Positions 6,262 through 63,556 of a DNA stretch of 64,000 bases are shown here, piece by piece. The stretch lies in NCBI GenBank assembly GCA_000438075.1, contig FR903536.1, positions 30,937 through 94,936 on the forward strand. Reading direction: 5' to 3'. The DNA comes from Clostridium sp. CAG:609 (lineage in GTDB: Bacteria > Bacillota_I > Bacilli_A > RF39 > UBA660). Positions within the stretch are counted from its first letter, which is position 1; every line of letters starts with the position of its first letter. Position numbers and translations under genes: made by a program. The notes under the pieces are model-generated. The model was not told the origin of the DNA. It saw only the letters and a program-made list of their open reading frames with translations, and did no database searches.

Positions 6262-6993
6262 TTATTTTAAACTACTGCTTCCAGTTTTATAATCTATATT
6301 TATACCTGTTTGAATATTATAAACAAAAACATTAAATTTTATACCTTCACCATTATCTTCAACAGATTTAGCTTCAATCTTAACACCACTTGCAAGCAAG
6401 TTGTCATCCTTATATATCGGTGTAACTCTATATAAAACATGATTATTAGTTTTCTTAATATAAAAAGCTACACTATTTTCAAAATCTAACATTCCTTTTG
6501 TGTTCATTTCTCTTGTACATGTAATCAAGTTTTTAGGATTTGCGTTTTCACCTGTCAATTGATAACCTATCAAATGACATCTATTATACAAATACTTTCC
6601 ATCAACTATATCATACTTTACAGTGTGCCACCCAGTTGGTTTAATCATTCCAATTGAACCTCTTTTTTCCGTAGGCATCAAATCTTTTCCAATATTACTA
6701 AATGCTACCTGTGCTCTACCCAAGCCATCTAATTCACTATATTTTTCAAAAGATTTACTTGTATCAACTGTCTCATCAAACTCAGGTTCATTATTATTTA
6801 ACACAATATAATTATAACCACTATAATCAGGTATATCTAAAACACCAATATTATTTACAACTTCACTACTATTATCAAAAGTACTATCGCTTAATTTATC
6901 TTCAATACCCTCAAAGTTATAAACAACCCCCAGTGCTAAAGCAAGCAATAAACTAATTACTGCTATATATCCATTACTTTTTCTCTTCTTCAT
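6262..6993 (-). CDS. secreted or membrane-anchored DNA/RNA non-specific endonuclease (EndA/NucA-like)
   Basis: N-terminal anchor YIAVISLLLALALGVV. Nuclease core LYNRCHLIGYQLTGENANPKNLITCTREMN. Confidence 0.8.
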   Translation of the reverse strand: MKKRKSNGYIAVISLLLALALGVVYNFEGIEDKLSDSTFDNSSEVVNNIGVLDIPDYSGYNYIVLNNNEPEFDETVDTSKSFEKYSELDGLGRAQVAFSNIGKDLMPTEKRGSIGMIKPTGWHTVKYDIVDGKYLYNRCHLIGYQLTGENANPKNLITCTREMNTKGMLDFENSVAFYIKKTNNHVLYRVTPIYKDDNLLASGVKIEAKSVEDNGEGIKFNVFVYNIQTGINIDYKTGSSSLK

Positions 6994-9924: not shown

Positions 9925-10671
9925 ATGAATTATTTAAGTATTGGCACAAAATATATATCAAAAAGCCTATTCCAACCAATAAAAAATGGTAATGGTTTTA
10001 AGCCCTACGGAGGTATCTGGGCAACAATACACAATAAAGAATACAAAAACTATAATGAATGGATGGACTATGTTATATTAAATCCATATATATTATTTAA
10101 CGTATACAAAGATAATCCCTTAGAAATACCTGCAGTTTATCTAACACTAAAAGAAAACACAAGTATATTTAAATTAAATGATAAAGAAGCCCTGGATTAT
10201 CTTCTTAAAACTTATCCATTAAATAACTGGATAGATTTTGAAAAACTTACACAAAACTATGACGGTATTTATATAGATATTTTAGAACTAGCCAGATGTA
10301 CAACCAAAGAACAATTTAACAATTTATTATCTTACTCAGTTAATACATTAATACTATTTAATCCAGATTGCATAGATTATTATCAAAAGACTACAATAAA
10401 AATAGACTCCTTAAATTTTGACCCAGCATCTCTTGAAATGGGATACACAATAAATATTGATGATAATCATGAAACAATCGGATTAGAAAATACTGATATA
10501 ATTAATTTACTTGAAAGAATAAAAAAATATATCAAAGATAATAACTTACCATATGATATAAACAGTTTTCTAAAACTTGAACAAGTATTTAAAAATGATA
10601 TAAACAAAACTGATATTCCTATTCCAAAAAAAGAAGCTTTACTAATTAGAAAAGCTTTCCACAGTATTTAA
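9925..10671 (+). CDS. hypothetical protein
   Basis: 248-aa ORF with strong RBS AAGGAGG. No TM helix and no recognisable motif. It is one of the few plus-strand genes in the window. Confidence 0.6.
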   Translation: MNYLSIGTKYISKSLFQPIKNGNGFKPYGGIWATIHNKEYKNYNEWMDYVILNPYILFNVYKDNPLEIPAVYLTLKENTSIFKLNDKEALDYLLKTYPLNNWIDFEKLTQNYDGIYIDILELARCTTKEQFNNLLSYSVNTLILFNPDCIDYYQKTTIKIDSLNFDPASLEMGYTINIDDNHETIGLENTDIINLLERIKKYIKDNNLPYDINSFLKLEQVFKNDINKTDIPIPKKEALLIRKAFHSI

Positions 10672-11554: not shown

Positions 11555-11589
11555 AATATCACAATATATATTATGAATAATTATACCAA

Positions 11590-11610
11590 AAGAAAAAGGC
11601 TTTACGCCTA
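11590..11610 (-). terminator. weak intrinsic terminator after the coupling-protein gene
   Basis: Minus strand reads UAG-GC GUAAA GCCU UUUUUCUUUUGG. The stem is only 4 bp plus a U-run and overlaps the stop codon. An extended -10 (TGGTATAAT, 11579-11587) for the rhodanese gene follows. Confidence 0.4.
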
Positions 11611-13755
11611 TTCATCTCCAAAGAAATCATCAAAGAATTCATCATCACTAACAACTGAATCATCAATTACTTTACTATCTTTATCAACATTAATAACTGG
11701 TGATGCTGGTAATACTTCTTCAGGTTCAACAATCTCTAATTGTTTTTCTTCATGTTTTTCTGGAATCTTATCTACTTCAGGTAACAAATCATCTTTCTTA
11801 ACTGGCTGTTCTTCTTTAACTTCTTTCTTCATAGCTTCTTGTCTATCAAGTTCTTTAAATTTTTCATCTAAATCTTTAAGCATACTATCTATATCCATAT
11901 CACTTATACTAGGTCTAGATGGAGCACTTCCAAAATTAGGCATTCCCATTCCTTGAGAAAATGGACTAAATCCCATTCCCATATCAATCGGTCTAAACGG
12001 ATTATTATTTTGAAAATTATTACCTTCTTCAGACATCTTTTTATTTCTTTGTTCCATAACAAATTCTTTTAAATCAAAAATCTGTACTTCTCTTTTTGCT
12101 CTAGTTGGATATTCTTCTTCTCTTCTTTCAATACCCCATTCCATTTTAAAATCAGGTTCTAACTTAGTTCTAAATGGACTAGTTCTAAGTCTAATGATTA
12201 TTGCTTCGAATAACTTCATCTTTTGCAAATCAGTAATCGTAATAAGTGGTCTAGTTGCATTTTTATCTTTTTCATCAGTTACTTTAACCTCACCACACAT
12301 CTTACTTATTTCTTCCAAAGCCTTCATTTCTGTACTTATTAAGTAAACTATATTACCACAATTACCTTTAATAATTTCTGCTACATTATCACCATATACA
12401 TCATTTAATTGAGCAAAGTTTTGAATAATAAATGTAAATCTAATGTCTCTGCTTCGAGCAGCTGACACCATAGCATCAACATCTTTAAGTGGTGGCATAT
12501 TTGCAAATTCATCTAATATAAAATTAGTTCTTACAGGAAGTTTACCACCATTTTCTTGAGCAGCATCAATTAATGTTTCATAACATTGTTTAATAAATAT
12601 TGTCATTAATGAGTGATATGTCTTTTTTTCATCATGAATAATCATAAATACAGCAGTCTTACCATTACCAATATCTTTCATATCAAAATCACTATATGAA
12701 AGCATTTCACTCAAAGCTTCACCTGTTGAGAAATTTCTTATCTTTTGTCTAAATGTTGCAAGCAAACCACCCTTTGTATCATTCGGTGCATTAATAGTAC
12801 TTGATGCAAACATATAAGCATTAGATTTTTCACCTTTCATACCAAAGTATTCTTTAATATAATTACTAGTTGCATACCTTTCTTCCCCAACTGTACTCAT
12901 TACATTTATACTATTTAAATTAACTTCTTCTTCCTTACCATCTTGAAATAACCCTAAAGCTAAACCAGAAAAATAATCTGCTGCTGACTTTTCCCAGAAA
13001 TCAGATTCATTCTTATTTGATGGATCATACAAAATATTTAAAGCAACGTCGTTTAATAATTCAATAGCTTTATCTGGATTACCAGCTCTATAATATTTAA
13101 ATGGTAATGTTAATGGATTCCATGAATTACCACGATTAGGTTCTCTGAAGTTTAATACAATTATTTTATAACCTTTTTCTTTCAAATAACTAGCACTATA
13201 CTTATATATTTCCCCTTTTGGGTCAGTGATAATCATTGATTCGCCTTTTTTAGCAAGTAAATTAACCATAGGTTTAACAACAGTTTGAGTTTTACCACTA
13301 CCTGTAGACCCAATAACTAAGTTATGATATTCTCCATTATCAACCCACATTTCCTTACCATTATTTATAAGAGGTATTCCTGCAGCATCTAATGTATCAG
13401 CCAAAGGATCAACCCTTTCAATCCCAGATTGTTCTTTAATATCCTTATCCTTTGCCCAACTTGAATAACCATCACTAGATTTTTTCTTTAAAATAATACC
13501 AAATCCACCATCTTTATCTTTCTTAAATATATAAGAAGAAACACTTGTAAAAATACCAACTAAAGATATAATAAATAAAATTAATGTCGCAGCAATATAC
13601 TTCGGTGTAAAAGCTAAAAATGGAAGTAACCCATAAAATGTACCATCTGTTGATAATGAAACAAAATTAAGTACAGCTATTGCACACAAATAAAGAAGTA
13701 ATCCACAATAAACTACAAACAACAAAAAATCTTTTGGTTCAACTTTAAACTTCAT
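11608..13755 (-). CDS. type IV coupling protein (VirD4/TraG family ATPase) with a long acidic C-terminal tail
   Basis: Two N-terminal TM helices, Walker A GSTGSGKTQT, Walker B FILDEFANMP, and RSRDIRFTFIIQNFAQL. The last ~190 aa are low-complexity and acidic, ending DDEFFDDFFGDE. Confidence 0.9.
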   Translation of the reverse strand: MKFKVEPKDFLLFVVYCGLLLYLCAIAVLNFVSLSTDGTFYGLLPFLAFTPKYIAATLILFIISLVGIFTSVSSYIFKKDKDGGFGIILKKKSSDGYSSWAKDKDIKEQSGIERVDPLADTLDAAGIPLINNGKEMWVDNGEYHNLVIGSTGSGKTQTVVKPMVNLLAKKGESMIITDPKGEIYKYSASYLKEKGYKIIVLNFREPNRGNSWNPLTLPFKYYRAGNPDKAIELLNDVALNILYDPSNKNESDFWEKSAADYFSGLALGLFQDGKEEEVNLNSINVMSTVGEERYATSNYIKEYFGMKGEKSNAYMFASSTINAPNDTKGGLLATFRQKIRNFSTGEALSEMLSYSDFDMKDIGNGKTAVFMIIHDEKKTYHSLMTIFIKQCYETLIDAAQENGGKLPVRTNFILDEFANMPPLKDVDAMVSAARSRDIRFTFIIQNFAQLNDVYGDNVAEIIKGNCGNIVYLISTEMKALEEISKMCGEVKVTDEKDKNATRPLITITDLQKMKLFEAIIIRLRTSPFRTKLEPDFKMEWGIERREEEYPTRAKREVQIFDLKEFVMEQRNKKMSEEGNNFQNNNPFRPIDMGMGFSPFSQGMGMPNFGSAPSRPSISDMDIDSMLKDLDEKFKELDRQEAMKKEVKEEQPVKKDDLLPEVDKIPEKHEEKQLEIVEPEEVLPASPVINVDKDSKVIDDSVVSDDEFFDDFFGDE

Positions 13756-13835
13756 AATATTCTTCCTTTCATTTCTTAAATCCTATTTTACCAAATTTCT
13801 AACAAAAAGTCATTACTTTTCAAAAAAATTTTTCA

Positions 13836-13864
13836 AAAATAAAAAGTGTATATTTCAACACTTT
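13836..13864 (-). terminator. intrinsic terminator/attenuator between the anchored-protein gene and the coupling-protein gene
   Basis: Minus strand AAAGUGU-loop-ACACUUU followed by UUAUUUUUG. An extended -10 (TGGTAAAAT) for the next gene lies downstream. Confidence 0.5.
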
Positions 13865-14639
13865 AATCTTGTATAACAATTTCATACTTTTTACTATCTT
13901 TATTATATTGATACATTATATTACCCGTCTTATTAACATTACTAAAATATCCTTTTTCTATAATTATATTATTAACACTTTTGCCATTAATATCAACTAC
14001 AGCTTTTATTGAATACAAAGGTTCTTCATAAAAATTATCATTAGTTACATCATCATTTTTAAGTACATAAACACTACCATTAAATACAACATATAATAAA
14101 CTAAAATAACTATTTAATTCTTCATCCATAATATTTGTTACGTAAATAATACTATCCATTATTCCATTATTATCTAAATCAATATTAACTTTTTCATATT
14201 TATTAATATCATCTATACCAATACTTTTATTTAATATACCATTAATTACATTTAAATCATTACTATCAATATCAACTTTATTAATATTTATTACTCGACC
14301 TAAATTTTTACTAAAACCAATTAATAAACCATCATAAGTAATTAGATTACTACCATCAAATAAGTTCCATACATTACCTAATTTATATGTATAAAAACCA
14401 CTATAAACATTATTAATATATGTTTCTAAATTAGTATTATCTATTAAACTATTATTAGATTTAATCCATGACCCATTATATCCCCAGATACTTTCATTAT
14501 TAATAATCATATAACTATATTCTTTTGAATCATTCGGATTATTACTATTACTCTCATTGTTTTTAAAAAGCACAAACACAACAAGTAATATAACAACCAA
14601 TCCACCAATAATAATAACAGGTACTTTTTTATTCATCAT
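13863..14639 (-). CDS. membrane-anchored T4SS-associated protein (occupies the PrgL/VirB8-like position)
   Basis: Single N-terminal TM helix VPVIIIGGLVVILLVVFVLF followed by a ~225-aa extracytoplasmic domain. Assignment is by position only; no motif was recognised. Confidence 0.45.
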   Translation of the reverse strand: MMNKKVPVIIIGGLVVILLVVFVLFKNNESNSNNPNDSKEYSYMIINNESIWGYNGSWIKSNNSLIDNTNLETYINNVYSGFYTYKLGNVWNLFDGSNLITYDGLLIGFSKNLGRVININKVDIDSNDLNVINGILNKSIGIDDINKYEKVNIDLDNNGIMDSIIYVTNIMDEELNSYFSLLYVVFNGSVYVLKNDDVTNDNFYEEPLYSIKAVVDINGKSVNNIIIEKGYFSNVNKTGNIMYQYNKDSKKYEIVIQD

Positions 14640-14650
14640 TACCATCCTTT

Positions 14651-17611
14651 TTATCTAGTTTTATAAGCAACTACTTGATCTACATATTTAACATCTAATG
14701 TTGATACTTTACCACCACTTGGATCTTTACCAGTTATAATATCTCCACTAACACTAGTAACTGCTATATAATGTCCTCTTTTATGAGCATCATTTATAAA
14801 ATGAACTAAAACAATATTATTATTTATATTATATTTATTAATAACACCCAATTTAGCACTATTTGAATAACTTCCAATTCTACTTTCATTACCAATTAAT
14901 GAAACATTCGGAGCTGCTTTTGTTATCGCCACACATGACCAATTAATTGCACCCTTATCAGTAAAACAACTTCCTTCATTTAATACATCTAGGAACTTCC
15001 CAGCATCAAAATCAGGTATCGTAGTTTCAGTACCACTACAAGTAATTCCCATTGCTAAAGATGTAACAGCACATCCAGAATCACCCATTGTAAGACGTGA
15101 CTTACCTAAATGTTTTGATTTCCATCTACTATCCCCTTGAGCATAATAAGTACATGCTTGTGAGAAATTTTCACATAAATCATCAGTTAAATTAAACATT
15201 GCATTTCTTTGACTAGCCATTTTTTCCACTTGCCACATTGAATATGCAAGTTGATCTTCATCTGTTGTTTGAACACAATTAGAACCACTACAAGTTTTAT
15301 CTTTACTACATGCCGCAGATACAACACCACTTCTTGCATAAGACATATATTTATTTATATAATCATAATAATAACATCCACCAGTACCAGCATCACCTGG
15401 ATTATACCAATAACTTCCTATATAAGCATATTTATTCATCATTGAACTTAAAGAATCATACTTCTTTATTGTGTTAATAAAACCTAGTACACCATCACTA
15501 AATGAACTATATGATGCACACTTAGAAAGACTTTGACCATTATAACAAGCTATACCCCAATAATTATTATAACTTTCATATCCTTTTGATGCTGGACTAT
15601 AACCTTCTAAATGAGCTCTTACTACAACAAGTTCAGGATTAATTCCATTACTTACAGCTAAATCATATATTGTACCAGCATTATCTTTAAATACAGATGC
15701 TGCTTTAGTACTCTTATTAGCATAGTAAGATTCAACTTTACTAATAAAATCTGATTTACTCAAACTTGTTGAACTTATTGACATTGCTTCACAAGCATTA
15801 CTTTCAGTATTTTCTGTATAAATAAATTCGCAATGATCAGCTAAATTATATATTTTATAATTACTACTTACACTAGATGCAGTATCTATAGTATTTAACA
15901 TACTCTTATATATTTTTTTATAATCATTATTTTCATAATAAATACCTTCCCTATAATCAGTTATTTCATAATTAATTCTAACAAACTTTAAATTTGTTAA
16001 ACCAGAACTATTTATTAAACCTTCCAAAGTATTATTAAAATTATTTATATCTATATTTTGAATACCAGCTTCAATTTGTTCAACAGGTCCTAGTGATATA
16101 ACAGTAATATTATTATTACTCCATTCCCCATTAGCTAGCTCATAATACTTATTATAATATTCTTGTGGATTATTTAAATTAACATCATGAAGCCCCATCC
16201 ATATAATTATATTGTAATTAACTCCGTCTTTCATTTTATTATTGATACCCATAATACCACCATCTGTACTATTAGTATCTTCTGCAGAAAAAGTTCCATT
16301 ACCAACTAACCAATCATAACCATATCCAACACCATACACACTTTTCTTTTTACTCACAATACCATATTGAACCATTCTATATAGTTGTGAATCTCCCAAA
16401 AATAAGGTATCAGAATAAATATGTTGAACTTCTCCACCTAAATTATCATATATCAAACTTAATATACTATTATAACTATTTTTTTCAAATGATTTAATTT
16501 GTTCTAACTTATTTTCATCTAACATTAATGAATTAGACAATGATAAATTAGTTATTTCATCACTATAAATACTAGATAAATACAAATAATTTTCTATATC
16601 ACTATATAAATCTTCATATTCTTCTGGATAATTTTCATTATATCCATATGAACATGTATCTAAATAAACATCTTTAATCGCATTATTATAATTACCTATA
16701 CTTAAAGCATTAGTTTTTACAATAATCATTATAGCTTTTAAAGCATCATCAGAATAACTTACGTTACCTACTAAAGATGCGGTTGTACCCAACACATATT
16801 TTTTTAAATCTAATGTTTTTTCTTCTTCAGTATCACATACATTTAAATGAACAGGAGCGGAATTAAAATCACATTCTTGACTAAAATATCCATTATTAGT
16901 TTCACCCCCCATTAACATTAAAAGTATTATAATAAATAAAATAAATAAACCAAAAACAAGTAATATCCATGGATTAGCTGCTATAAAAGCAACAATCTTC
17001 TTTTTTGCTACAGATGCCATAACTTTAGCTTTTTCTTTAGCAACTTTTTTTACAGCATTAGTACCCTTTTTAACTTCACTCTTTGCCTTATTTTTTAAAG
17101 CTTCTCCGGGATGCATCATATTATATGCATTTGCTTTAGCATCATCAACTTTATTAACTAAAGCATTCTTCTTAGCATTAGCATAATTTAAATTATCTAA
17201 CACTCTATCCATCTTAGTCTTAGGTTTTAACACATTCCCTTCGCTAGAAGATGTCTTAACATTTCTTTTTCTTTCTTCATTTAATTTATTAGCTTTTTTA
17301 TTTAATTCATCTTGTCTATCTTTATAATAATTCTTATCATATACTCCATCTTTATTCTTAGCTTGATCATATTGTCTTTGACCAAACTTTTCATTTCTAA
17401 CAGATGGAATTTCATCCATAGTCTGTGGCTCAACCACTTGACTATTGTACTCAATTTGTTCATCAAGTACCCTTTCTAATTCATCTAAATCATTTATATC
17501 ATGCAAACCAACTTGAGAAGCAATTGTTCTCAAGTTGTCTAATTGGGAATCACTATTTCCTATATCTAAACCTAATTTCTTAGCTTTTTCTATAATTCTA
17601 TCCGTTTGCAT
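14651..17611 (-). CDS. T4SS-associated multi-domain peptidoglycan hydrolase (VirB1/PrgK analogue)
   Basis: 986 aa. Cytoplasmic Lys-rich N-terminal region, one TM helix (WILLVFGLFILFIIILLMLM), GDS block LFLGDSQLYRM, glucosaminidase/lysozyme-like GINPELVVVRAHLEGYSPA...NNYWGI, and a C-terminal Cys-His peptidase-like YYAQGDSRW...GDSGCAVTSLAMG...RGHYIAVTSVSGD. Confidence 0.8.
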   Translation of the reverse strand: MQTDRIIEKAKKLGLDIGNSDSQLDNLRTIASQVGLHDINDLDELERVLDEQIEYNSQVVEPQTMDEIPSVRNEKFGQRQYDQAKNKDGVYDKNYYKDRQDELNKKANKLNEERKRNVKTSSSEGNVLKPKTKMDRVLDNLNYANAKKNALVNKVDDAKANAYNMMHPGEALKNKAKSEVKKGTNAVKKVAKEKAKVMASVAKKKIVAFIAANPWILLVFGLFILFIIILLMLMGGETNNGYFSQECDFNSAPVHLNVCDTEEEKTLDLKKYVLGTTASLVGNVSYSDDALKAIMIIVKTNALSIGNYNNAIKDVYLDTCSYGYNENYPEEYEDLYSDIENYLYLSSIYSDEITNLSLSNSLMLDENKLEQIKSFEKNSYNSILSLIYDNLGGEVQHIYSDTLFLGDSQLYRMVQYGIVSKKKSVYGVGYGYDWLVGNGTFSAEDTNSTDGGIMGINNKMKDGVNYNIIIWMGLHDVNLNNPQEYYNKYYELANGEWSNNNITVISLGPVEQIEAGIQNIDINNFNNTLEGLINSSGLTNLKFVRINYEITDYREGIYYENNDYKKIYKSMLNTIDTASSVSSNYKIYNLADHCEFIYTENTESNACEAMSISSTSLSKSDFISKVESYYANKSTKAASVFKDNAGTIYDLAVSNGINPELVVVRAHLEGYSPASKGYESYNNYWGIACYNGQSLSKCASYSSFSDGVLGFINTIKKYDSLSSMMNKYAYIGSYWYNPGDAGTGGCYYYDYINKYMSYARSGVVSAACSKDKTCSGSNCVQTTDEDQLAYSMWQVEKMASQRNAMFNLTDDLCENFSQACTYYAQGDSRWKSKHLGKSRLTMGDSGCAVTSLAMGITCSGTETTIPDFDAGKFLDVLNEGSCFTDKGAINWSCVAITKAAPNVSLIGNESRIGSYSNSAKLGVINKYNINNNIVLVHFINDAHKRGHYIAVTSVSGDIITGKDPSGGKVSTLDVKYVDQVVAYKTR

Positions 17612-17633
17612 AAAACCACCTCAAATGAGGATA

Positions 17634-19421
17634 TTAATAACCTCCACCTGAACCAAATGAATCTAATTCTTCTTGAGTAATAACAATTTGAATCTTCATT
17701 CTCTTATTACCACATATAAACAAAGCTTCCCCTTGATTATAATATTTAATAGATTCCATTTCTGATTCATTTAAATCAATTAATTTTGCTAAATCATCAA
17801 CAGCTTGTTTTCTAAGACCCATTACTAAGTAATATGAAGCATTATCAAATATTGCTTTACCATGAGTTATAATATTCGGAGCCGCAAAATCAGTAGGTTG
17901 TTGAGTAATGATAATTGTTCCAGTATTATACTTTCTACTTCTTCTTTGCATTTGTGCTAAGAATTCAGCCCCAAGTTCATTATGTCCTGCAAGTAAAACA
18001 TGAGCTTCATCAACCATCATAACAGTGTTAATATCTTTATCTAAACATAATCCCCATGCATACTTTAAAATATTAAAGAATAATGCATTCTTAATATTTT
18101 CATCACTATTCATAAGTTCTTTTATATTAAATACAATAAAATCACTATCAATCTTTAGTGTTGTTTTACCAGTAAAATAATATCTAAGTTCTTTAACCAA
18201 AGGTCTTATCTTAAGTTCAAGTCGTTCCAAAACATCACGTTCATGCGTAGCATCTGTCATACTAACTAAATGACCTTTTATAGTTGCATAAACATCATCA
18301 AATGTTGGATAATCAGCACTAGTTAACTTAGTAAAATCTGTTTCATAATCTATTTTAAATCTTTTATAAGTTTCTTGTAATACATCACTAAACATAGTAA
18401 GAACATCATCTTCAATACTAGGCGAATAATATTTCATAAATGCTTTAACTTGTTGAAGTGTTCTAGTTAAAACAGTATAACCTAATCCTTGTGCTATTTC
18501 ATCTTCATCAGCATCAATAACAATTTCAAGGGGATTAATCATACCAAATTCTCCACCTTTACCTAAGTCAAGGAAATCTCCACCTAGGCTATAACACATA
18601 TCTCCAAGTTCACCTTCAGGGTCAACACATACAACTTTATATCCGTTTCTTATGTGAGTTCTAAGTAATACTTTCGCAGCAGTACTCTTACCAGAACCAC
18701 TCATACCAAGTAAAATAATATTAGCATTATTTCTATTATTTTCTTTTCTTATTTGATATAAGAATTGATTAAATAATATAACACCACCAGAGAAATCTAC
18801 ACCAAGAAGTGTTGCATTACCTGGGTCTTTAATACTATCAAAGATAAAAGGATACATTGCTGCTATTGTAACAGATGGTATCGGCGTACCAATTCTATTT
18901 TCAATATCTTGTGGTGGAAATATAGGTAGTATTGACTTTAATGCTTTTTCTTGTTCAAACATTAAAGCAACAGCTCTCATTCCTAACGCATCCAAATAAC
19001 TTCTTACTTGAATCTTTCTTAATTCCAATTCTTCTTTATTATTTGCAGTAATCATCAAATGCATTTGAAAATCAAATATTCTAGCTTGAGTTGCTGCAAG
19101 CATTTGAATAAATTGTTCCAAAGATTCATAATCTTGACGTATTCTTTCTTGCATTGTATTATCTTTTTCACTTTGATATCTTACTTTTAAATCTGCTATT
19201 TCTTTATTAAGCATTTTTTGTAATACTGAAAAAGGTATAGGCATATGTTTAATAGCTATTTTAACACCTTGAATATTAGTTATATCAGATAAAAAACCTG
19301 GTGCAATATTTCTAGGAAAAGCTATAACAGTCATAATTGTTGAATACTTTCCCCCTAATACAAATTCAGTTGGTTTAAATTCCATTCCTTTAGGAGCTAT
19401 TTCACTTTTAATTTTACTCAT
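17634..19421 (-). CDS. VirB4-family T4SS ATPase, C-terminal (ATPase) part
   Basis: Walker A GMSGSGKSTAAK, Walker B VMMVDEAHVLL, and RRSRKYNTGTIIITQQPTD. It begins 1 nt after the stop of the preceding ORF. Confidence 0.9.
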   Translation of the reverse strand: MSKIKSEIAPKGMEFKPTEFVLGGKYSTIMTVIAFPRNIAPGFLSDITNIQGVKIAIKHMPIPFSVLQKMLNKEIADLKVRYQSEKDNTMQERIRQDYESLEQFIQMLAATQARIFDFQMHLMITANNKEELELRKIQVRSYLDALGMRAVALMFEQEKALKSILPIFPPQDIENRIGTPIPSVTIAAMYPFIFDSIKDPGNATLLGVDFSGGVILFNQFLYQIRKENNRNNANIILLGMSGSGKSTAAKVLLRTHIRNGYKVVCVDPEGELGDMCYSLGGDFLDLGKGGEFGMINPLEIVIDADEDEIAQGLGYTVLTRTLQQVKAFMKYYSPSIEDDVLTMFSDVLQETYKRFKIDYETDFTKLTSADYPTFDDVYATIKGHLVSMTDATHERDVLERLELKIRPLVKELRYYFTGKTTLKIDSDFIVFNIKELMNSDENIKNALFFNILKYAWGLCLDKDINTVMMVDEAHVLLAGHNELGAEFLAQMQRRSRKYNTGTIIITQQPTDFAAPNIITHGKAIFDNASYYLVMGLRKQAVDDLAKLIDLNESEMESIKYYNQGEALFICGNKRMKIQIVITQEELDSFGSGGGY

Positions 19422-19422
19422 A

Positions 19423-19983
19423 TTACATCACCGCCCCAAAATTAGTTGTTTCTCCACCATTTAAGAAATTATCTAAAACAACTCTTAAATCATTATTGGA
19501 AGTTTGAACACTTTGTAATCCAGCATTAGCAAGTCCACTTATTAAATTATGTAATTTCTTTTGAACTATTTCTAATCTCTTTTCTTTAAACAAGATATAA
19601 TATTCAGTATCAACTACATTATATTCACTACTCATAAATAGATTAGCTTTATTAATATCTTGCATAATTAATTTCTTAATAGCATTACTTTCAGCATTAT
19701 TATACATAAGTTGTAATTGAGATAGATACACATCAATATCCACAGGTCTATCAGCAATAAGCAACCAGAAATCATAATCAATACTATTATAAAAATTTCT
19801 TAATTGATAAATAGTATTATTTTGTGAACCTTGATCCATAATAAATATATTTTTAGGCATTACCTTAACACCAGTAACATATGTACCATCATCAAGTTGT
19901 ATCATACCATTCATTATTTGTCTAACAGGTAACCAGTTTTCTGTATAACTTACACCTGAAGAATTATTCATCTTTGAGTTCAT
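19423..19983 (-). CDS. VirB4 N-terminal domain encoded as a separate ORF
   Basis: NWLPVRQIMNGMIQLDDGTYVTGVKVMPKNIFIMDQGSQNN...FWLLIADRPVDIDVYLSQL resembles the N-terminal region of Gram-positive VirB4/TraE proteins. 186-206 aa plus 595 aa sums to the usual ~800 aa. Start is probably MNSKMNN (19983) or 19971. Confidence 0.6.
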   Translation of the reverse strand: MNSKMNNSSGVSYTENWLPVRQIMNGMIQLDDGTYVTGVKVMPKNIFIMDQGSQNNTIYQLRNFYNSIDYDFWLLIADRPVDIDVYLSQLQLMYNNAESNAIKKLIMQDINKANLFMSSEYNVVDTEYYILFKEKRLEIVQKKLHNLISGLANAGLQSVQTSNNDLRVVLDNFLNGGETTNFGAVM

Positions 19984-20284
19984 CTTTAACACACCAACCT
20001 TTCCAATAATATCTACGTGGATTAAATATAAATGTACATGCATTTATAATGAATTGTAATACATTATGATAATGCATAACTGGAGTGACTAAAAATCCAG
20101 TTATAAGTGCAGGCATAAGTATAACAATCATCTGACCAACCGATGCATTTTGCACTAGCATTAACAGCATTACAGTAAGTAAGCATCCAAATCCAAAAAG
20201 CAAAATATCAGTCAGAGTAAAGAACCCTAATATCAATTGTGACTTTTTAGAATTTGCAGGTATTAAATAATTATTCATCCCCAA
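19964..20284 (-). CDS. PrgI/VirB3-like small T4SS membrane protein
   Basis: 106 aa with two TM helices (LILGFFTLTDILLFGFGCLLTVMLLML; MIVILMPALITGFLVTPV). It sits immediately upstream of VirB4, as prgI does for prgJ. Confidence 0.65.
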   Translation of the reverse strand: MGMNNYLIPANSKKSQLILGFFTLTDILLFGFGCLLTVMLLMLVQNASVGQMIVILMPALITGFLVTPVMHYHNVLQFIINACTFIFNPRRYYWKGWCVKDELKDE

Positions 20285-20300
20285 ATCATTCCTTTCTTAA

Positions 20301-22712
20301 TTATTTTTTAGAAGCATTATTATCGTTATACTCACTAGTAAGTTTACGAGCTTTATATTTATTTTCATTTCTAGCCTGTTCTTGCATTTTTTTACGTTGT
20401 TCAAAAATAGCATCAATAATTTTATTAGCTTGTTCATAAGTACGTTTTTCACGTTCATTTTTATTTATCTCAACAGCAATTTCATTATTAATAGATGATC
20501 CTTTTTTAAATGCTTCATTTATCAAAGCCCAACCTTCCAATTGTTTATTATCTTTATCAACAAAAGAAGTAATATCAATTTTATTTCCATCTGAATCTTT
20601 TAAAACACCACTCTTTAAATCATCAATAAATTTTTGATAATTGGTATAGAATTTACCACCATCATCAACTTCTATTTTACTTCCATCGTAGTTAACATAA
20701 ATTCTTTTACCAGATTCATGTGAGGCAGCAGTAACAAATTTTTCTTGCATCATTTTCTCTAAATCCGCTAAATCTAAAGCAGCTTTATTATATGCTTCAT
20801 CATTAATAACTCCAGTTTTGTAATTTTGATCTAATTGAGCTTTTAACGAATTATAATTACCAACTAAACTCATAGATGTCGTCTTATTCATTATTTCAGT
20901 ACGCTTTACATTATAAGTATCTTTTTCTTCTTGAGTTAAAGGTCTTCCACTATAAGCATCATCAAGTTTTTGCAAATCCATTTTTCGTTGAGCATCAGTA
21001 TATTGAATATCCAATTTTTCAAGAATTTTAGAATCACTTTTATGAATTTCATCTAAACCATCATTTTTAAATGTACCTCTAGCATTAGTAATTGTTGCAT
21101 TTTCAACTGAAATATCACGTTTTTTGCTTGATGCACTATTAACTTCAGCAATTTGTATATTATTATTAAGTTTGTTAGTTTCCAATTCTTTAACTTTTTC
21201 AGGTGTTAATTGAATACTATTTCCATTTTCATCTTTAACAGTATAAACTTTATTTTCAATACCATAATCATCCGCCTTATTAGAAGATTCAAAGCCAAAC
21301 ATTCTACGCATACGATCTTTAAAAATTTCAGTTCTAGTTACACCTTGAGCTCTTGCATCTTTATAAGCACGTAATCTGTTTGCTTCTCCCCCAATATTAT
21401 GCAAATCAGCATTTTTCATACCATATTTCCAACCTCTGTAAGCAGCTAAAGGATTTCCTTTAGAAGTAACCAATGAACCAACAGCATTTGCAACTCCGAA
21501 CAATCCACCAGCAGCTAATTTATCTTTTATACCAAGTTTCATACCTCCACTATCAATATGGAATAAATCACATATTAACTTAGGAGCTTGTCTAATAAAC
21601 GTTACAATTCCAAGAATAATTATTACTCTAGCAAATGCTCTTTGCAAAATACCTAATCCAGAAAGTGTTGTTCCAAATACTAAATTCATATCATTCACTA
21701 AAAGAATTAAGTATAATCCTATTACTATAACAAAAACTCTTATAAAGACTTCTAAATATACACTAATAACTTTCTTTAACCATGTTGAAAAAACATCTTT
21801 CATTTTTCCGCCTGGTATTATTCTGCAAATAACAGGTATAGGTGCTATGATTTCAAAAAACAACATTTTAATAAAACGTAAAGCTATATCAAATACAAAA
21901 TTTAACAAAACATATGCTACATAAACACCAACAACAGTTGAAAAGAACCACATATAAGAAAGGTCTCCAGTAACAATAGAGTTAGTAAAATCACTATAAA
22001 CACCAAATCCATATTTACCATACCTAACCATATTATCATAATAGAAGAAAGATGATGTATCAGATGCACCAATCAAACTATTTAAAGCACCAACTCCCAG
22101 ATTAACAAATGGAATAAACTTTGTAATTCCTGTTGCACCTAAAGCAATTTTTTCACCGCAACCTTTTATTTGTTCTTCAGTTAAAGCATCGACGTTTACT
22201 TTATTATCTCCAGCACATTTATCATAATCAACATGTAAAAAAGAATTAAAAATAGAATATGCCATTGTTCTTCCAGGACTAGGTTCAGGATCATCTTCAG
22301 TATTTTGTAAAGTAAACGGATTAGTAATACCATCACCAAATAATATCTTAGGTATAGTATCATTTTCCAAAACAGAAGTTTGAAACTTATAAGCAAAGTT
22401 AAAACATGTTGGTAAAATAGCTATAATGATTATAGAAACAACAATATTTTGCATTAATTTAGAAAATGAAGTATCTCCCTTTGAAAAATTCTCAGGATTT
22501 ATTACAGCTTTCAATAAAGAATACGCTAAAGCAAAAAGCATAACAACACCAAGTATAACATATACATTAGTAACTACTTTATTAATAGTTTCTTGTTCAG
22601 TAGAAAACACGTCAATAGTTGCAATAGCAACAAAAATATCATACAACCAATCAATTATGTTATATACCCAACCATCTAAAGTTAATAATATAGAAAAAAA
22701 TGTTGTAATCAT
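20301..22712 (-). CDS. VirB6-like polytopic T4SS channel protein with a long hydrophilic C-terminal tail
   Basis: 803 aa. About 7-8 TM helices in the first ~430 aa, then a ~370-aa charged, coiled-coil-like tail. Position matches PrgH/Orf15-type proteins. Confidence 0.65.
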   Translation of the reverse strand: MITTFFSILLTLDGWVYNIIDWLYDIFVAIATIDVFSTEQETINKVVTNVYVILGVVMLFALAYSLLKAVINPENFSKGDTSFSKLMQNIVVSIIIIAILPTCFNFAYKFQTSVLENDTIPKILFGDGITNPFTLQNTEDDPEPSPGRTMAYSIFNSFLHVDYDKCAGDNKVNVDALTEEQIKGCGEKIALGATGITKFIPFVNLGVGALNSLIGASDTSSFFYYDNMVRYGKYGFGVYSDFTNSIVTGDLSYMWFFSTVVGVYVAYVLLNFVFDIALRFIKMLFFEIIAPIPVICRIIPGGKMKDVFSTWLKKVISVYLEVFIRVFVIVIGLYLILLVNDMNLVFGTTLSGLGILQRAFARVIIILGIVTFIRQAPKLICDLFHIDSGGMKLGIKDKLAAGGLFGVANAVGSLVTSKGNPLAAYRGWKYGMKNADLHNIGGEANRLRAYKDARAQGVTRTEIFKDRMRRMFGFESSNKADDYGIENKVYTVKDENGNSIQLTPEKVKELETNKLNNNIQIAEVNSASSKKRDISVENATITNARGTFKNDGLDEIHKSDSKILEKLDIQYTDAQRKMDLQKLDDAYSGRPLTQEEKDTYNVKRTEIMNKTTSMSLVGNYNSLKAQLDQNYKTGVINDEAYNKAALDLADLEKMMQEKFVTAASHESGKRIYVNYDGSKIEVDDGGKFYTNYQKFIDDLKSGVLKDSDGNKIDITSFVDKDNKQLEGWALINEAFKKGSSINNEIAVEINKNEREKRTYEQANKIIDAIFEQRKKMQEQARNENKYKARKLTSEYNDNNASKK

Positions 22713-22715
22713 ATA

Positions 22716-23141
22716 TTAATTCACCGTTCCTGTTCCTATTCCACATGTTCCATAAGCACCAAATAAAGACATCAAAAATTCTACAATCATTGGTGTAAAG
22801 AACAATAAAATACAATATATAAATCTCTTAATTGCAGTATTACTAGCTTTCTTTAAAGCATCTTTATCATTTTGAGCTAATGCTTTTATAAAATCTAATG
22901 TTGTTAAAACCAATAAAGCAATAATACCAATATATTTCATTATTTCCAAAGCTTGTTGCATCCAATAAGCTGGTGATCCTTCATCACTAGGTTTGCCAAA
23001 AGCAGCACATTCTTCTTCAATTGTAGCAACATTATTTATGAAGTTATTATTTAAAACACTTGCATTAGCTTTTATCATAAATGAAAAAGAAAATAACATA
23101 GTGATACAAAAAAATAATATATTATTAATTTTCTTATTCAT
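22716..23141 (-). CDS. small secreted two-TM protein, possible VirB2-like pilin/T4SS subunit
   Basis: Signal peptide LFFCITMLFSFSFMIKANA followed by two hydrophobic helices (YIGIIALLVLTTL; FIYCILLFFTPMIVEFLMSLF). It is the first gene of the T4SS operon. AGGAGTG RBS precedes ATG 23141. Confidence 0.45.
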   Translation of the reverse strand: MNKKINNILFFCITMLFSFSFMIKANASVLNNNFINNVATIEEECAAFGKPSDEGSPAYWMQQALEIMKYIGIIALLVLTTLDFIKALAQNDKDALKKASNTAIKRFIYCILLFFTPMIVEFLMSLFGAYGTCGIGTGTVN

Positions 23142-23180
23142 GAAAATCACTCCTAAACCCAAGCAACACTTGATATATAA

Positions 23181-23209
23181 ATTTTATCATAAATATAGAG
23201 TAACGTCAA
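23181..23209 (-). promoter_or_regulatory. sigmaA-type promoter of the T4SS operon
   Basis: Minus strand TTGACG, 17 nt spacer, TAAAAT with an upstream TG (TGATAAAAT). It lies ~40 nt upstream of the first T4SS gene. Confidence 0.6.
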
Positions 23210-26508: not shown

Positions 26509-27360
<852 letters not shown>

Positions 27361-43495: not shown

Positions 43496-43557
43496 TCACA
43501 TCCCGCGTGGGGCGGAAACTTCAGCCAGCCACGCTAAACCAAAGGTTCTCACATCCC
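43496..43557. repeat. 9-nt direct repeat (TCACATCCC) flanking a 44-nt GC-rich segment at the stop codon of the 43549 gene
   Basis: Copies at 43496-43504 and 43549-43557. The intervening 43505-43548 (gcgtggggcggaaacttcagccagccacgctaaaccaaaggttc) contains a GCGTGG...CCACGC stem and is far more GC-rich than its surroundings. Confidence 0.7.
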
Positions 43558-44679
43558 TATAATATATGGATGATCTAATGTTCCTTCTCCGTCATAAACA
43601 AAGACAGATGAGTTTAGATACACAACAGGACGATTACCATTCCCATTTAGTGTACCAACACTATACAAGGTGCCAACAAAGTTTGTAATAAATACACTGT
43701 CACCATTTAAAGAATTCGGTGTGATTGTCCATATATGTCCTTTTCCATACAGCCAACTTTGTCTAGCACATAAACCATATGAGTCTAAATTAGTTGTTCT
43801 TTTACAACTACTCGATAATACACTATAACCATAATCGCTTGGATACATTAACCCTATATATCCAGTAGTGGTTGTTGGTCTTCCACTATACACTGTTGTG
43901 CCTCTCTCGCACTCATAATACGTTTCAGTTATTGCATCAACACTTGAACAACCTCCCAGAAACCACGTAACATTTGCTATCATCTTCCTATAATAAGGTT
44001 GTATTCCTCTTTTAGTGTAATCACAATTAGCTCCAATTGTTGTACCATTACCATAGCAGTAACCAGAGCTAGTTCCATCTTGATCATTATAATAAACACC
44101 ATTAAGAAGTAAATTTAAACTTGCTGTTGTCCAATCGTTAGTTTTTGATTTATCCCACGCTAGCCCATCCAAAACATCATCACGTATTATTTTTACTAAA
44201 TTCTTATCATTTTGACCATGTGATGCACTATCAAATACTCCAATTATTCTCCAATATTCATTATTAAACCACACATAATTATTTGGATTTTTTCCTTCAT
44301 ATCTAAATCCATTTTCATTTACAACTTGTCCCGTTCCTTGTGTTGTTCCTGTTAATCCTATAATGTAATCATTTAAATATGTTTTCGTTATTGTTTCAAA
44401 CTTAATATCACATGATACATCACCATTTATATTTTCTATTATTAATTTCCAATCATCATATAGCCATTTCCCATTTGCTCCATCACATGATACATTCACT
44501 ATATATAATCCTTTAGATGGAAAAGATGTTATACTTTTTCCATCTAAAGATAAAGCATACAATATCCCATCTTTTTTAAATGTATGTTTATTATTAGTGT
44601 TATTATTTAAAATAATTACAATAATTAATAATATTATTAATACAATTTCTATACTTACTATTCTAATTCTTTTTTGCAT
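43549..44679 (-). CDS. membrane-anchored surface protein, paralogue A
   Basis: N-terminal TM helix IVSIEIVLIILLIIVIIL, a Cys-bracketed beta-rich module, and a conserved domain RYEGKNPNNYVWFNNEYWRIIGVFDSASHGQ...GYIGLMYPSDYGYSVL...RPVVYLN...GEGTLDHPYIIGM. Confidence 0.7.
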   Translation of the reverse strand: MQKRIRIVSIEIVLIILLIIVIILNNNTNNKHTFKKDGILYALSLDGKSITSFPSKGLYIVNVSCDGANGKWLYDDWKLIIENINGDVSCDIKFETITKTYLNDYIIGLTGTTQGTGQVVNENGFRYEGKNPNNYVWFNNEYWRIIGVFDSASHGQNDKNLVKIIRDDVLDGLAWDKSKTNDWTTASLNLLLNGVYYNDQDGTSSGYCYGNGTTIGANCDYTKRGIQPYYRKMIANVTWFLGGCSSVDAITETYYECERGTTVYSGRPTTTTGYIGLMYPSDYGYSVLSSSCKRTTNLDSYGLCARQSWLYGKGHIWTITPNSLNGDSVFITNFVGTLYSVGTLNGNGNRPVVYLNSSVFVYDGEGTLDHPYIIGM

Positions 44680-44844: not shown

Positions 44845-46218
44845 TTACATACCTATGGTATATGGATCATTTAATGTACCATCTCCATCTATTATATACA
44901 CAGAATCATTTAAATACAAAACTGGACGACTACCACTTCCATTTATTGCACTAGTGAAACCTGGGTAACCACTGGTACTCATAATGAACACACTGCTGCT
45001 ACTTGAAGAAATTGGTGTAATCATCCATTCATCGCCTTTACCATATAGCCAACTTCGACCTGCACACGAAGAAATATTATAAGAACTTAAATTTGTTCTT
45101 CTTGAACACCCATTTGCTAATACACTATATCCATAATCACTTGGATACATTAATCCTATATATCCTGTTGCACTTGTTGGTCTTCCACTATATACTTCTG
45201 TTCCTCTTTCATATTCGTAAAATTTCTCAGCTGTAGCATCACTGTTTGAATAGCCTCCTAAATACCATGTTACACTTGCTATCATATTTCTATATCCAAC
45301 CTGTATTCCTCGTTTTGTATAATTACAATTAGCTATAACAGATGTATTAAATCCATAGCAATATCCAGAACTTGTCCCATCTTGAGCATTATAGTAAGCA
45401 CTATTAAGAAGTAAATTTAAAATAGCTACTGTCCAATTATTATTATTGTGCCATACTAATCCGTCCAAGACATCATCACGTATTATTTTCACTAAATTCT
45501 TATTTGCTTGGCCATGTGACGCACTATCAAATACTCCAATTATCCTCCAATATTCATTATTAAACCATACGTAGTTATTTGGATTTTTCCCTTCGTATCG
45601 GTAACCTTTTTCATTTATTATTTTTCCATTTCCTTGAGTAGTTCCCGCTAAGCCTATAATATACGTTGCTAAATTTACTTTTGAGGAGCTATCAGTATAG
45701 TTTAGTGTACATGATGTATATTTACCATTTATTTGTGATACTTCAATTCTATTATATTGTTGATTATATGTTGTACTACTATTATCACAAATAATATTAC
45801 CTAACTTACCATATGTAGTTGGTAAGTTATTAACAGCAACACTAACATCCGGTGGAACTACATCAAAATATACATAGCATTTATCACTTATATTTGATTT
45901 TAAAGTAACTTTTTGTGTTTCTTCATTATAACTTAATGTCCCCCCATTTTCACATCCAGACTTAACACTATTAAATTCATAACCAGCCTCTGGAAATGTT
46001 CCAGATGTCGATATATTATAAACCCCTGAACCTCTTTTTGTCTCCAACATAATTGCTAACCCACTTAATGGTTCAATCTTCTTCTCTTTTATTTCACTTA
46101 ATAAATTATTTTCGTTAAAATTATTTTTGTATATGAATACAACAATGATTGTAAGAAATACAACAAAACCACATAAAAATGTAAGTTTTTTTCTATTCAT
46201 CTTTGATTTTCTCACCAT
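44845..46218 (-). CDS. membrane-anchored surface protein, paralogue B
   Basis: Same architecture and identical peptides (RYEGKNPNNYVWFNNEYWRIIGVFDSASHGQ, KNLVKIIRDDVLDGL, GYIGLMYPSDYGYSVL), with a longer N-terminal extracellular region. Ends DPYTIGM. Confidence 0.7.
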   Translation of the reverse strand: MVRKSKMNRKKLTFLCGFVVFLTIIVVFIYKNNFNENNLLSEIKEKKIEPLSGLAIMLETKRGSGVYNISTSGTFPEAGYEFNSVKSGCENGGTLSYNEETQKVTLKSNISDKCYVYFDVVPPDVSVAVNNLPTTYGKLGNIICDNSSTTYNQQYNRIEVSQINGKYTSCTLNYTDSSSKVNLATYIIGLAGTTQGNGKIINEKGYRYEGKNPNNYVWFNNEYWRIIGVFDSASHGQANKNLVKIIRDDVLDGLVWHNNNNWTVAILNLLLNSAYYNAQDGTSSGYCYGFNTSVIANCNYTKRGIQVGYRNMIASVTWYLGGYSNSDATAEKFYEYERGTEVYSGRPTSATGYIGLMYPSDYGYSVLANGCSRRTNLSSYNISSCAGRSWLYGKGDEWMITPISSSSSSVFIMSTSGYPGFTSAINGSGSRPVLYLNDSVYIIDGDGTLNDPYTIGM

Positions 46219-61666: not shown

Positions 61667-61683
61667 GTTTCCTCCTTATTCTA

Positions 61684-63498: not shown

Positions 63499-63556
63499 TT
63501 CTATCCTCCTATAATAAGGATAGACTAAAACACAAAAAAAGTCAATATATTTTATA

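Follow-up and report, generated by a model that had tools for sequence, protein, structure and literature searches.

According to a 2025 review, nearly all known functions of Gram-positive type IV secretion systems (T4SSs) consist in DNA transfer, and the single exception of the Gram-positive type, with VirB2-like pilins and a T4SS needed for survival, is that of the Patescibacteria; the review adds that VirB2-like subunits are not known from other Gram-positive systems (PMC12857230). There the system is chromosomal, lineage-wide, MPF_FATA-derived and mostly without a relaxase; it comprises TrsD, PrgI, VirB6 and VirB2-like pilins, with peptidase and lysozyme genes just 3′ of virB4, and the epibiotic growth of Southlakia requires it (PMC12102498, PMC12857230). 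The integrative and conjugative elements (ICEs) of Mycoplasma have a minimal VirB4/VirD4 module and no identified relaxase gene, and they drive chromosomal transfer (PMC6030558; PMC12857230). Here we describe an eight-gene T4SS operon in a stretch of 64,000 nucleotides from Clostridium sp. CAG:609 (contig FR903536.1, positions 30,937 to 94,936; the whole stretch analysed is called the window below). We find that the operon is an intact T4SS and a fixed, vertically inherited and strongly constrained chromosomal operon of a large uncultured lineage of low-GC gut Bacilli, and that it is neither an ICE nor part of a plasmid nor a remnant in decay. In a search of the literature no paper came up that connects RF39-type Bacilli with a T4SS.

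In the ORF (open reading frame) analysis of the window the operon consists of eight co-oriented, tightly packed and intact ORFs on the minus strand (11608-23162), in the order pilin-like, VirB6/TrbL-like, PrgI/VirB3-like, TrsD-like, VirB4, wall hydrolase, anchored beta-rich protein and VirD4, each of them where the initial annotation of this DNA had placed it. The likeness to the T4SS of Patescibacteria (e.g. Southlakia epibionticum) lies in a monoderm, MPF_FATA-derived, chromosomal and whole-lineage system of reduced genomes, with no relaxase nearby (PMC12102498, PMC10633639, PMC12857230). It extends to a TrsD-like gene by virB4, a PrgI/VirB3-like gene, VirB6, one or more candidate VirB2-like pilins, sometimes in tandem, peptidase and lysozyme genes directly 3′ of virB4, and a coupling protein that is not always linked. 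The Patescibacteria, however, are a different phylum, VirD4 usually lies inside the operon in the present lineage, and it is for Patescibacteria that essentiality and an epibiotic lifestyle have been shown. To our knowledge, no within-species allelic cassettes of the kind described below have been reported for Patescibacteria. Since the nearest named VirB4 relatives belong to the Erysipelotrichales and Mycoplasmatota and not to the Patescibacteria, the operon probably represents an independent domestication, and we class it as an analogue of the patescibacterial system rather than as a member of that clade.

With the Mycoplasma ICEs (MICE/ICEA; CDS5 TraG/VirD4, CDS16, CDS17 TraE/VirB4; PMC6030558) the operon shares the best-scoring VirB4 family model (NF045975), matches of the VirB6-like protein to the Mbov_0396 and MMCAP2_0566 models, the lack of a recognisable relaxase gene and a related host lineage, although all its scores against the Mycoplasma ICE models lie under the family cutoffs. 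Whereas the VirB4 of these elements is one fused PrgI-TrsD-VirB4 protein of ~890 amino acids (aa), the operon has three ORFs; and whereas the elements are mobile, with a DDE transposase (CDS22), multiple copies, random insertion and no wall hydrolase, the operon occupies a single fixed site, has no transposase and encodes a large hydrolase. Similarly, the 89K T4SS of Streptococcus suis ("type IVC") has a Gram-positive VirB1/VirB4/VirB6/VirD4 set, and non-conjugative effector secretion has been discussed for it (PMC12857230). Compared by description only, the operon differs from 89K in being species-fixed and lineage-wide and in having no island boundaries. 89K itself is a pathogenicity island that varies between strains and has the behaviour of an ICE.

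The initial annotation had likened the gene order to that of the enterococcal plasmid pCF10, yet the TrsD-containing plasmid type and the Mycoplasma/Erysipelotrichales ICE type are closer. Plasmids of the pGO1/pIP501 subclass have the same order of small protein, TrbL/VirB6, PrgI, TrsD-like protein, VirB4 and wall hydrolase. The Bacillus thuringiensis plasmid NZ_CP097259 encodes, in order, a MobP3 relaxase, VirD4, a 126-aa protein, TrbL, PrgI, a TrsD-like protein, VirB4 and NlpC/P60; its VirD4 is, like that of the operon, of the CD1115 family, but the identity amounts to ~28-33% only, and the MobP3 relaxase immediately upstream of VirD4 and the partition and replication genes of the plasmid have no counterpart with the operon. 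The plasmid order is likely the ancestral layout, relative to which the operon appears to have kept the core order and lost the relaxase, with VirD4 at the opposite end. No plasmid gave a nucleotide match to the operon, the best plasmid VirB4 being 30.5% and the best plasmid VirD4 ~28% identical. Among 1.84 billion cluster representatives (50%-identity clusters), full-length relatives of VirB4 stand at 69%, 46% and 46% identity and then at 34% or less; the named ones, at 30-34%, come from Thomasclavelia ramosa, Solobacterium, Erysipelotrichaceae (fused, 865-870 aa), a Clostridium and a Mycoplasmatota plasmid. Judged from these identities, the operon does not appear to be a recent plasmid acquisition.

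A fixed and constrained chromosomal operon

Public metagenome assemblies, mostly of human gut, contain the identical VirB4 sequence in 282 indexed blocks. All ten distinct VirB4 places among the matches listed have the same context, namely UDG, a collagen-like protein, LemA, FemAB, FemAB, the T4SS, rhodanese, DedA, a 248-aa ORF, MscS, ADH and VanY. To avoid circularity the housekeeping neighbour DedA (293 blocks) was used as a second anchor, and in 10 of the 10 DedA places among the matches listed the T4SS lies immediately upstream of it. The within-species sample thus comprises ~20 contig contexts, the two sets overlapping in at least one contig, and among the 10 VirB4-anchored and 10 DedA-anchored places listed there is no empty site. 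In the DedA-anchored set the identity to the window is 99.7-100% for VirB4, 99.4-100% for VirD4, ~98% for MscS and 94-96% for ADH.

The same picture holds between species. In a scan of one genome per species, relatives of VirB4 were found in at least 576 genomes, and the best 80 of these at least 576 are 78-95% identical, except for one truncated locus (L058; related loci are numbered L throughout) in which VirB4 is 100% identical over its 503 residues. The titles of the metagenome-assembled genomes (MAGs) name uncultured Bacilli, Tenericutes, Mycoplasmatota, "Firmicutes bacterium CAG:460", Ca. Onthocola and Ca. Caccenecus, from human, chicken, rabbit, mouse and other guts; for a few titles that name Muribaculaceae or Methanobrevibacter, a binning error is the simplest explanation. 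The NCBI taxonomy puts the named genera (Ca. Onthocola, Ca. Caccenecus) in Bacilli incertae sedis and gives no closer placement; we take the lineage to be the GTDB order RF39. The PrgI, TrsD-like and VirB4 ORFs are intact in all of ~100 loci, VirB4 measuring 593-598 aa. VirD4 follows downstream in 37 of 80 species loci, after the hydrolase and an ORF of 218-330 aa at the position of the anchored protein, and where the locus reaches far enough rhodanese-DedA-MscS usually comes next, even when the upstream neighbours differ. The question of whether the locus is fixed or variable is thereby answered by one site in all the ~20 contexts listed and by a downstream synteny common to many species.

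Nor does the locus carry genes for its own mobility. A Pfam and NCBIfam scan of every sizeable non-ribosomal ORF found no relaxase, recombinase, transposase or replication-initiator family in the 64-kb window, in agreement with the initial annotation; no tRNA was found in the window, and there are no att repeats at the T4SS locus. Likewise, precomputed Pfam annotation shows no relaxase among the called genes within ~10 kb in 22 metagenome loci. The exceptions among mobility genes, both at locus edges and not conserved, are a serine recombinase, confined to the distant locus L092 and ~10 kb upstream there, and an ISL3 transposase (L104) beyond the end of the window, more than 40 kb from the operon. 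Sporadic insertions in related loci consist of PDDEXK_2, AAA_14/DUF4143 and HTH genes; relaxases as their identity were rejected by a family scan of ten such ORFs from six species loci, none of which is one. In all, we saw no adjacent relaxase or integrase, no relaxase-like neighbouring ORF and no strain-variable or pseudogenised copy of the operon.

Selection was estimated from dN/dS, the ratio of non-synonymous to synonymous change (Nei-Gojobori, window against nine other species), the values being approximate because dS is near saturation (0.6-1.3): they are 0.07-0.09 for VirB4 in seven nearer species and 0.12-0.13 in two more distant ones, 0.07-0.14 for PrgI, 0.09-0.18 for the TrsD-like protein and 0.14-0.18 for VirD4, as compared with 0.11-0.26 for the flanking ADH, MscS and FemB, 0.3-0.5 for the pilin-like protein and 0.3-0.9 for VirB6, the hydrolase and the anchored protein. 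PrgI, the TrsD-like protein, VirB4 and VirD4 are under very strong purifying selection, and the constraint on the motor genes exceeds that on the housekeeping genes beside them. Evolution is extremely fast in the distal part of VirB6, the catalytic part of the hydrolase, the anchored beta protein and the pilin-like protein. The T4SS genes and the flanking genes have similar dS, in keeping with co-divergence. The earlier argument that this is no decaying ICE remnant is borne out by intact genes, fixation in the species and strong purifying selection on the motor genes.

Within the species, two allelic cassettes are swapped independently by homologous recombination. On contigs of one species the flanks of the two cassettes are 94-99.5% identical, while the inside of cassette 1, in VirB6, is ~70% identical or unalignable. 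Cassette 2, in the hydrolase and the anchored protein, has sharp edges at 16680 and 13864, with 66% identity over 15831-16336 and nothing else alignable. The alleles also differ in length, with 733/734, 777, 803 or 848 aa for VirB6 and 986/993 as against 936/943 aa for the hydrolase. Since VirB6 and hydrolase alleles occur in different combinations, the cassettes recombine independently across the conserved virB4 region.

Components of the apparatus

The motor proteins are the best recognised. VirB4 has the Walker A motif GMSGSGKST and the Walker B motif MMVDEAH; in the Pfam and NCBIfam scans it matches P-loop_TraG (8.9e-13), AAA_10, NF045975 (3.3e-104) and NF045971 (2.7e-48), and it matches the solved Thermoanaerobacter VirB4 domain PDB 4AG5 at 1.1e-57, its 349 bits against NF045975, the Mbov_0397 VirB4 model, lying under the equivalog cutoff of 590. 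VirD4, with two N-terminal transmembrane (TM) helices, Walker A GSTGSGKT and Walker B ILDEF, scores above the cutoff of NCBIfam NF045973 (conju_CD1115; 298.7 bits vs 250) and matches the Pfam families T4SS-DNA_transf (PF02534, 2.8e-56), TraG-D_C (2e-24) and TrwB_AAD_bind (1.7e-22). Its last ~150 residues (11608-12100, minus strand) are an acidic low-complexity tail with the terminus DDEFFDDFFGDE. A plus-strand ORF of 127 aa (11573-11956), rich in Ser, Leu and Thr, overlaps this tail and looks like an antisense artefact. Directly 3′ of virD4 in two other species, though absent from the window, stands PDDEXK_2, a PD-(D/E)XK nuclease-family "transposase" (L012:17820-18668, L051:19267-20130).

The initial annotation had read VirB4 as occupying two ORFs. 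The upstream one, whose stop codon and the virB4 ATG are one base apart, stands as an ORF of its own in all related loci that extend to that position, is 33% identical (3e-21) to a 210-aa ORF between prgI and virB4 on the B. thuringiensis plasmid NZ_CP097259, and aligns with positions 90-276 of NF045975 (1.3e-13), resembling the N-terminal domain of VirB4; for these reasons it is a TrsD-type partner of VirB4 and no pseudogene fragment, and a split VirB4 pseudogene was rejected. The layout is likely an ancestral one, found on that conjugative plasmid too. In precomputed annotation the TrsD-like protein carries PF26593 (TraC-like), and both the pGO1 subclass and the Patescibacteria are known to have a partner of the TrsD type (PMC12102498). 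The PrgI-like protein matches TcpE (6.5e-5) and PrgI (0.048), both below the gathering cutoffs, and aligns with positions 2-96 of the fused Mycoplasma ICE VirB4 model NF045975; the position of its gene matches that of the PrgI gene on NZ_CP097259.

For the first gene the initial annotation had a small secreted protein with two TM helices. A signal peptide and a two-helix TM hairpin with a charged loop are indeed present, to which can be added that the product is a candidate VirB2-like pilin, a lead supported by the match of 5 of 28 orthologues to PF18895 (T4SS_pilin) at 0.01 or better (best 1.6e-5), the protein of the window itself reaching E=0.093. Across 28 species two Cys, one Arg and one Pro are invariant, and in L091 the gene has a tandem paralogue (hhalign 96.9%). 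The family has no match to solved structures in the PDB, and a relationship to the 126-aa protein at the equivalent plasmid position was rejected, the comparison not being significant. In many of the more distant species (L037, L042, L045, L050, L054 and others) the pilin-like domain forms the C-terminal ~90 aa of an ORF of 345-590 aa upstream of VirB6, with a long low-complexity N-terminal extension, either a real fusion or an over-extended ORF call.

The VirB6-like protein of the window matches NF045848 (MMCAP2_0566, 7.5e-7) and NF045889 (Mbov_0396, 1.1e-5), both below cutoff. BLASTP against plasmid TrbL was not significant, and the relationship needed family-level Pfam matches instead: 6 of 40 orthologues match TrbL_4 (best 1.9e-8) and 4 of 40 TrbL, with a precomputed TrbL_4 match in L091. 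By its hydropathy profile the protein has 5-6 TM segments and an acidic loop of 150 aa that contains Cys; its C-terminal tail of 430 aa is rich in K and E and, on a crude hydropathy and positive-inside reading, probably lies in the cytoplasm.

The 986-aa protein has a cytoplasmic N-terminal part of 215 aa, one TM helix and an extracellular part of 750 aa. The allele of the window has sub-threshold Pfam matches only (SpoIID 0.0036, Glucosaminidase 0.014), and neither the whole protein nor three segments of it matched PDB sequences. The alternative allele of other strains, at the same position and with the same N-terminus, has clear Peptidase_M23 and Phage_lysozyme2 (lysozyme-like) domains. We regard the protein as a candidate membrane-anchored multidomain cell-wall hydrolase. 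The protein encoded next is N-terminally anchored and extracellular, with no Pfam or NCBIfam family match; its AF2 model (pLDDT 83) is all-beta and without significant match in the PDB (best E 0.088, TM below 0.25). Its earlier equation with PrgL does not hold: homology to VirB8/PrgL (the NTF2 fold of PrgL and TraM) was rejected, given a confident all-beta model and no PrgL/VirB8-like match in the PDB.

Neighbourhood and signals of the window

The coordinates of the operon, its cassettes and its signals are collected in Table 1, together with the insertions of AAA_14/DUF4143 ATPase genes in related loci. The latter are presence/absence insertions at varied positions in and around the operon, across strains and species, and suggest a small gene family that is mobile or often recombines.

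Table 1. Features of the T4SS operon in the window and AAA_14/DUF4143 insertions in related loci
Feature	Position	Strand	Remarks
Pilin-like ORF	22716-23162	-	148 aa from TTG; likelier 141 aa from ATG at 23141
VirB6/TrbL-like polytopic membrane protein	20301-22712	-	803 aa
PrgI/TcpE (VirB3-like) small membrane protein	19964-20284	-	104-106 aa
TrsD-like ORF	19423-20043	-	206 aa as ORF; 189 aa as called on metagenome contigs
VirB4 ATPase	17634-19421	-	595 aa
Wall hydrolase candidate, VirB1 position	14651-17611	-	986 aa
Anchored beta-rich protein	13863-14645	-	258-260 aa
VirD4-type coupling protein	11608-13755	-	715 aa
Promoter-like TTGACG-17-TAAAAT with TG	23181-23209	-	in the 120-bp gap from the fem terminator hairpin to the first T4SS gene
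Weak terminator-like hairpin 3′ of virD4	11585-11607	-	GGC-GTAA-GCC, then T-run; read directly from the sequence
Allelic cassette 1	20310-22329	-	VirB6 from ~residue 128 (large loop) to stop; some strains diverge only from ~21505-21531 (tail)
Allelic cassette 2	13864-16680	-	hydrolase from ~residue 310 to end and whole anchored beta protein
AAA_14/DUF4143 between femB and first T4SS gene	L002:4577-5995, L005:3948-6343, L008:3943-6338		
AAA_14/DUF4143 between virB4 and hydrolase	L056:11885-14568, L059:4462-5718		
AAA_14/DUF4143	L104:1500-2702		

The promoter named in the initial annotation is where it was said to be, but in this AT-rich region such motifs are not found above chance (89 against 93.9 expected from shuffled sequence), so that the promoter is plausible by its position only. 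Similarly, the three hairpins claimed as terminators or attenuator, 3′ of fem, 5′ of virD4 and 3′ of virD4, are visible in the sequence, though the terminator scan calls none of them. The window has a GC content of ~27% and a strong, uniformly negative GC skew (-0.2 to -0.48), and nearly all its genes lie on the minus strand; the uniform skew and the one-strand arrangement fit a single replichore with very strong gene-strand bias.

The flanks of the operon are as first described, with two FemAB genes, LemA, UDG and DnaB on one side and rhodanese, DedA/VTT and MscS on the other. Elsewhere in the window are genes for an ABC/FtsX transporter, SDR, a non-specific endonuclease, VanY, ADH, a collagen-repeat protein, MYG1, SPOUT, an M23/LysM peptidase, L9, MBOAT, SSB, S6, YchF, AbgT, ParB and ParA, as well as ribosomal protein operons and a ComGC-like pilin cluster. 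Of these, parA/parB, ychF, rpsF-ssb and rplI-dnaB adjoin oriC in many Bacillota; dnaA and oriC were found neither in the window nor in the 10 kb beyond, and we make no claim of origin proximity.

Two sets of unassigned ORFs were considered as hidden mobility genes. The 248-aa ORF at 9925-10671 (plus strand), kept between DedA and MscS in many species, has 15 database homologues, from this lineage only, no Pfam or NCBIfam family and no hit in a profile search against PDB sequences; its AF2 model (pLDDT 87) gave weak fold matches to the RES toxin and to pertussis S1 (ADP-ribosyltransferase-like) at E ~0.08 (0.075), which are not significant. A hidden relaxase was rejected, there being no family, no PDB profile match and no relaxase-like structure match. 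The ORFs at 43549-44679 and 44845-46218 (minus strand), beside parA, are likewise without Pfam or NCBIfam family; they were rejected as mobility genes, being paralogous, N-terminally anchored, Cys-rich extracellular proteins of 376 and 457 aa.

Other observations concern single neighbours. A DNA/RNA non-specific endonuclease gene (Endonuclea_NS_2, 1.8e-26; 6262-6993, minus strand), ~5 kb from the T4SS and kept in all strain contigs, could be relevant to nucleotide scavenging or DNA processing. The collagen-triple-helix repeat protein (26521-27360, plus strand) adjoins LemA and varies from 224 to 354 aa between strains of one species, its DNA showing many staggered self-matches; in the distant species L050 a BclA_C-domain protein (12193-12684) stands directly 3′ of virB4. 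A cluster of small ORFs at 61148-63949 (minus strand), continuing past the end of the window (L104:8396-12351) around a protein of 604 aa that bears a prepilin N-methylation motif and weakly resembles ComGC/ComGF, appears from these features to be a pilin cluster of a type IV pilus or competence pseudopilus. It lies directly upstream of the S10 ribosomal operon, with Spo0A, PGK, TIM and iPGM just beyond.

Possible functions of the operon

On balance we lean towards a domesticated monoderm T4SS that serves the cell itself, in contact-dependent exchange with neighbouring cells. The suggestion of domestication, already made in the initial annotation as one of several explanations, becomes probable with a species-fixed site, conservation throughout the lineage and a constraint stronger than that on flanking housekeeping genes. 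In such an apparatus PrgI, TrsD, VirB4 and VirB6 would build the membrane translocon, the anchored multidomain hydrolase would open the peptidoglycan, the pilin-like protein may form a surface fibre, and VirD4 would feed cytoplasmic substrates, whether protein, DNA or other, into the channel. The fast-evolving outer and distal modules might then set the specificity for the partner or for self and non-self, or serve to evade phage or antibody.

Several points weigh against this reading. The nearest relatives are ICE and plasmid systems that move DNA (the Mycoplasma ICE VirB4 model; Erysipelotrichales and Mycoplasmatota proteins), and VirD4, the receptor of the relaxosome in conjugation, is kept and constrained. 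The search for a relaxase covered the window and the genes named above in related loci, and a relaxase or oriT may lie elsewhere in the genome. The dN/dS values are approximate, as said, and both the pilin assignment of the window protein and the hydrolase assignment of its own allele are sub-threshold. Because the hypervariable tail of VirB6 is probably cytoplasmic, selection directed at the surface cannot explain all of the variability. The eight-gene unit, moreover, is not universal: 13 species loci with at least 6 kb downstream have no adjacent VirD4 and hydrolase. Unrelated genes follow virB4 in those 13 loci (in L050 BclA_C, GT2-TPR, ZIP and epimerase genes), so that the pilin-VirB6-PrgI-TrsD-VirB4 core is separable from the hydrolase-VirD4 module.

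The kept coupling protein is readily accommodated if the operon is a working conjugation channel served in trans, which uses a relaxase and oriT elsewhere, or an unrecognised relaxase, and transfers chromosomal DNA or mobilisable elements. We hold this to be rather unlikely, and the same estimate applies to its form as a domesticated "sex" apparatus comparable to the ICE-driven chromosomal transfer of Mycoplasma. VirD4 retains intact Walker motifs and the TraG-D_C and TrwB_AAD domains under purifying selection, the core gene order is that found beside the MobP3 relaxase on the B. thuringiensis plasmid, and the best family model is the VirB4 of Mycoplasma ICEs, which transfer DNA without an identified relaxase gene (PMC6030558; PMC12857230). 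However, neither the 64 kb, nor the called genes of the 22 metagenome loci, nor the ten inserted ORFs contain a relaxase, and 13 species loci do without an adjacent VirD4. A constraint above that of housekeeping genes across hundreds of species would, moreover, be unusual for occasional gene transfer. The abundant homologous recombination between strains at the locus is in keeping with such transfer, but the ComGC-like pilin cluster in the window is another route by which it could arise. In SXT/R391 ICEs, variable VirB6/TraG segments determine entry-exclusion groups; treated as a lead only, this makes an exclusion or specificity role for the variable VirB6 worth testing.

Improbable, in our judgement, is an interbacterial weapon or effector translocator that delivers toxic or lytic proteins, possibly the hydrolase itself, to competitor bacteria or host cells. 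The swapping of hydrolase catalytic modules between strains (M23 and lysozyme-like against a different C-terminal half) would suit it, but multidomain hydrolases of the VirB1 type are normal in Gram-positive conjugation systems. VirD4 is present, and secretion of a protease has been reported for the T4SS of the S. suis 89K island (PMC12857230); yet in family scans nothing within the operon or next to it could be recognised as a toxin-immunity pair or an effector domain. As to the conserved neighbour at 9925-10671, its weak RES/pertussis-S1-like fold similarity points in this direction without being significant (E 0.075).

We think it similarly improbable, if anything a little more so, that the operon is a system for the uptake or release of DNA, of the kind represented by Helicobacter ComB, the Neisseria GGI or archaeal Ced. 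VirB4 and VirD4 do match the CedB and CedD DNA-import models, though weakly and far below cutoff, and the non-specific endonuclease lies 5 kb away in what is reportedly a lineage of reduced genomes. Systems of the ComB type, however, are without VirD4, which the operon keeps; a separate ComGC-type pilin cluster is present; and the operon contains nothing specific to the handling of DNA. An old ICE or plasmid remnant that by chance is still intact can be dismissed as highly improbable, since, for all its clearly conjugative ancestry, it is already contradicted by genes intact in ~100 loci, the absence of an empty site among the places listed, a constraint equal to or stronger than that on housekeeping genes with dS like that of the flanking genes, and the lack of att repeats, tRNA and integrase.

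Returning to the domesticated contact apparatus, a more specific version of it seems to us possible, though tentative: a fitness-critical, non-conjugative cell-cell machine, a second independent domestication convergent with that of the Patescibacteria, in which the cassettes encode specificity for the partner or for self and non-self. The motor being conserved while two cassettes are swapped, the locus would then be a natural experiment on the specificity-determining parts of a T4SS. As a second independent lineage-wide chromosomal T4SS, it would make the domestication of monoderm conjugation machines a recurring route in genome-reduced bacteria. If true, these never-cultured gut bacteria may depend on physical contact, which would fit the reported incompleteness of their peptidoglycan precursor synthesis and the prediction that the lineage perhaps needs scavenged muropeptides (PMC10868615), and the operon would provide a concrete lead on why an abundant lineage of the human and animal gut resists cultivation.

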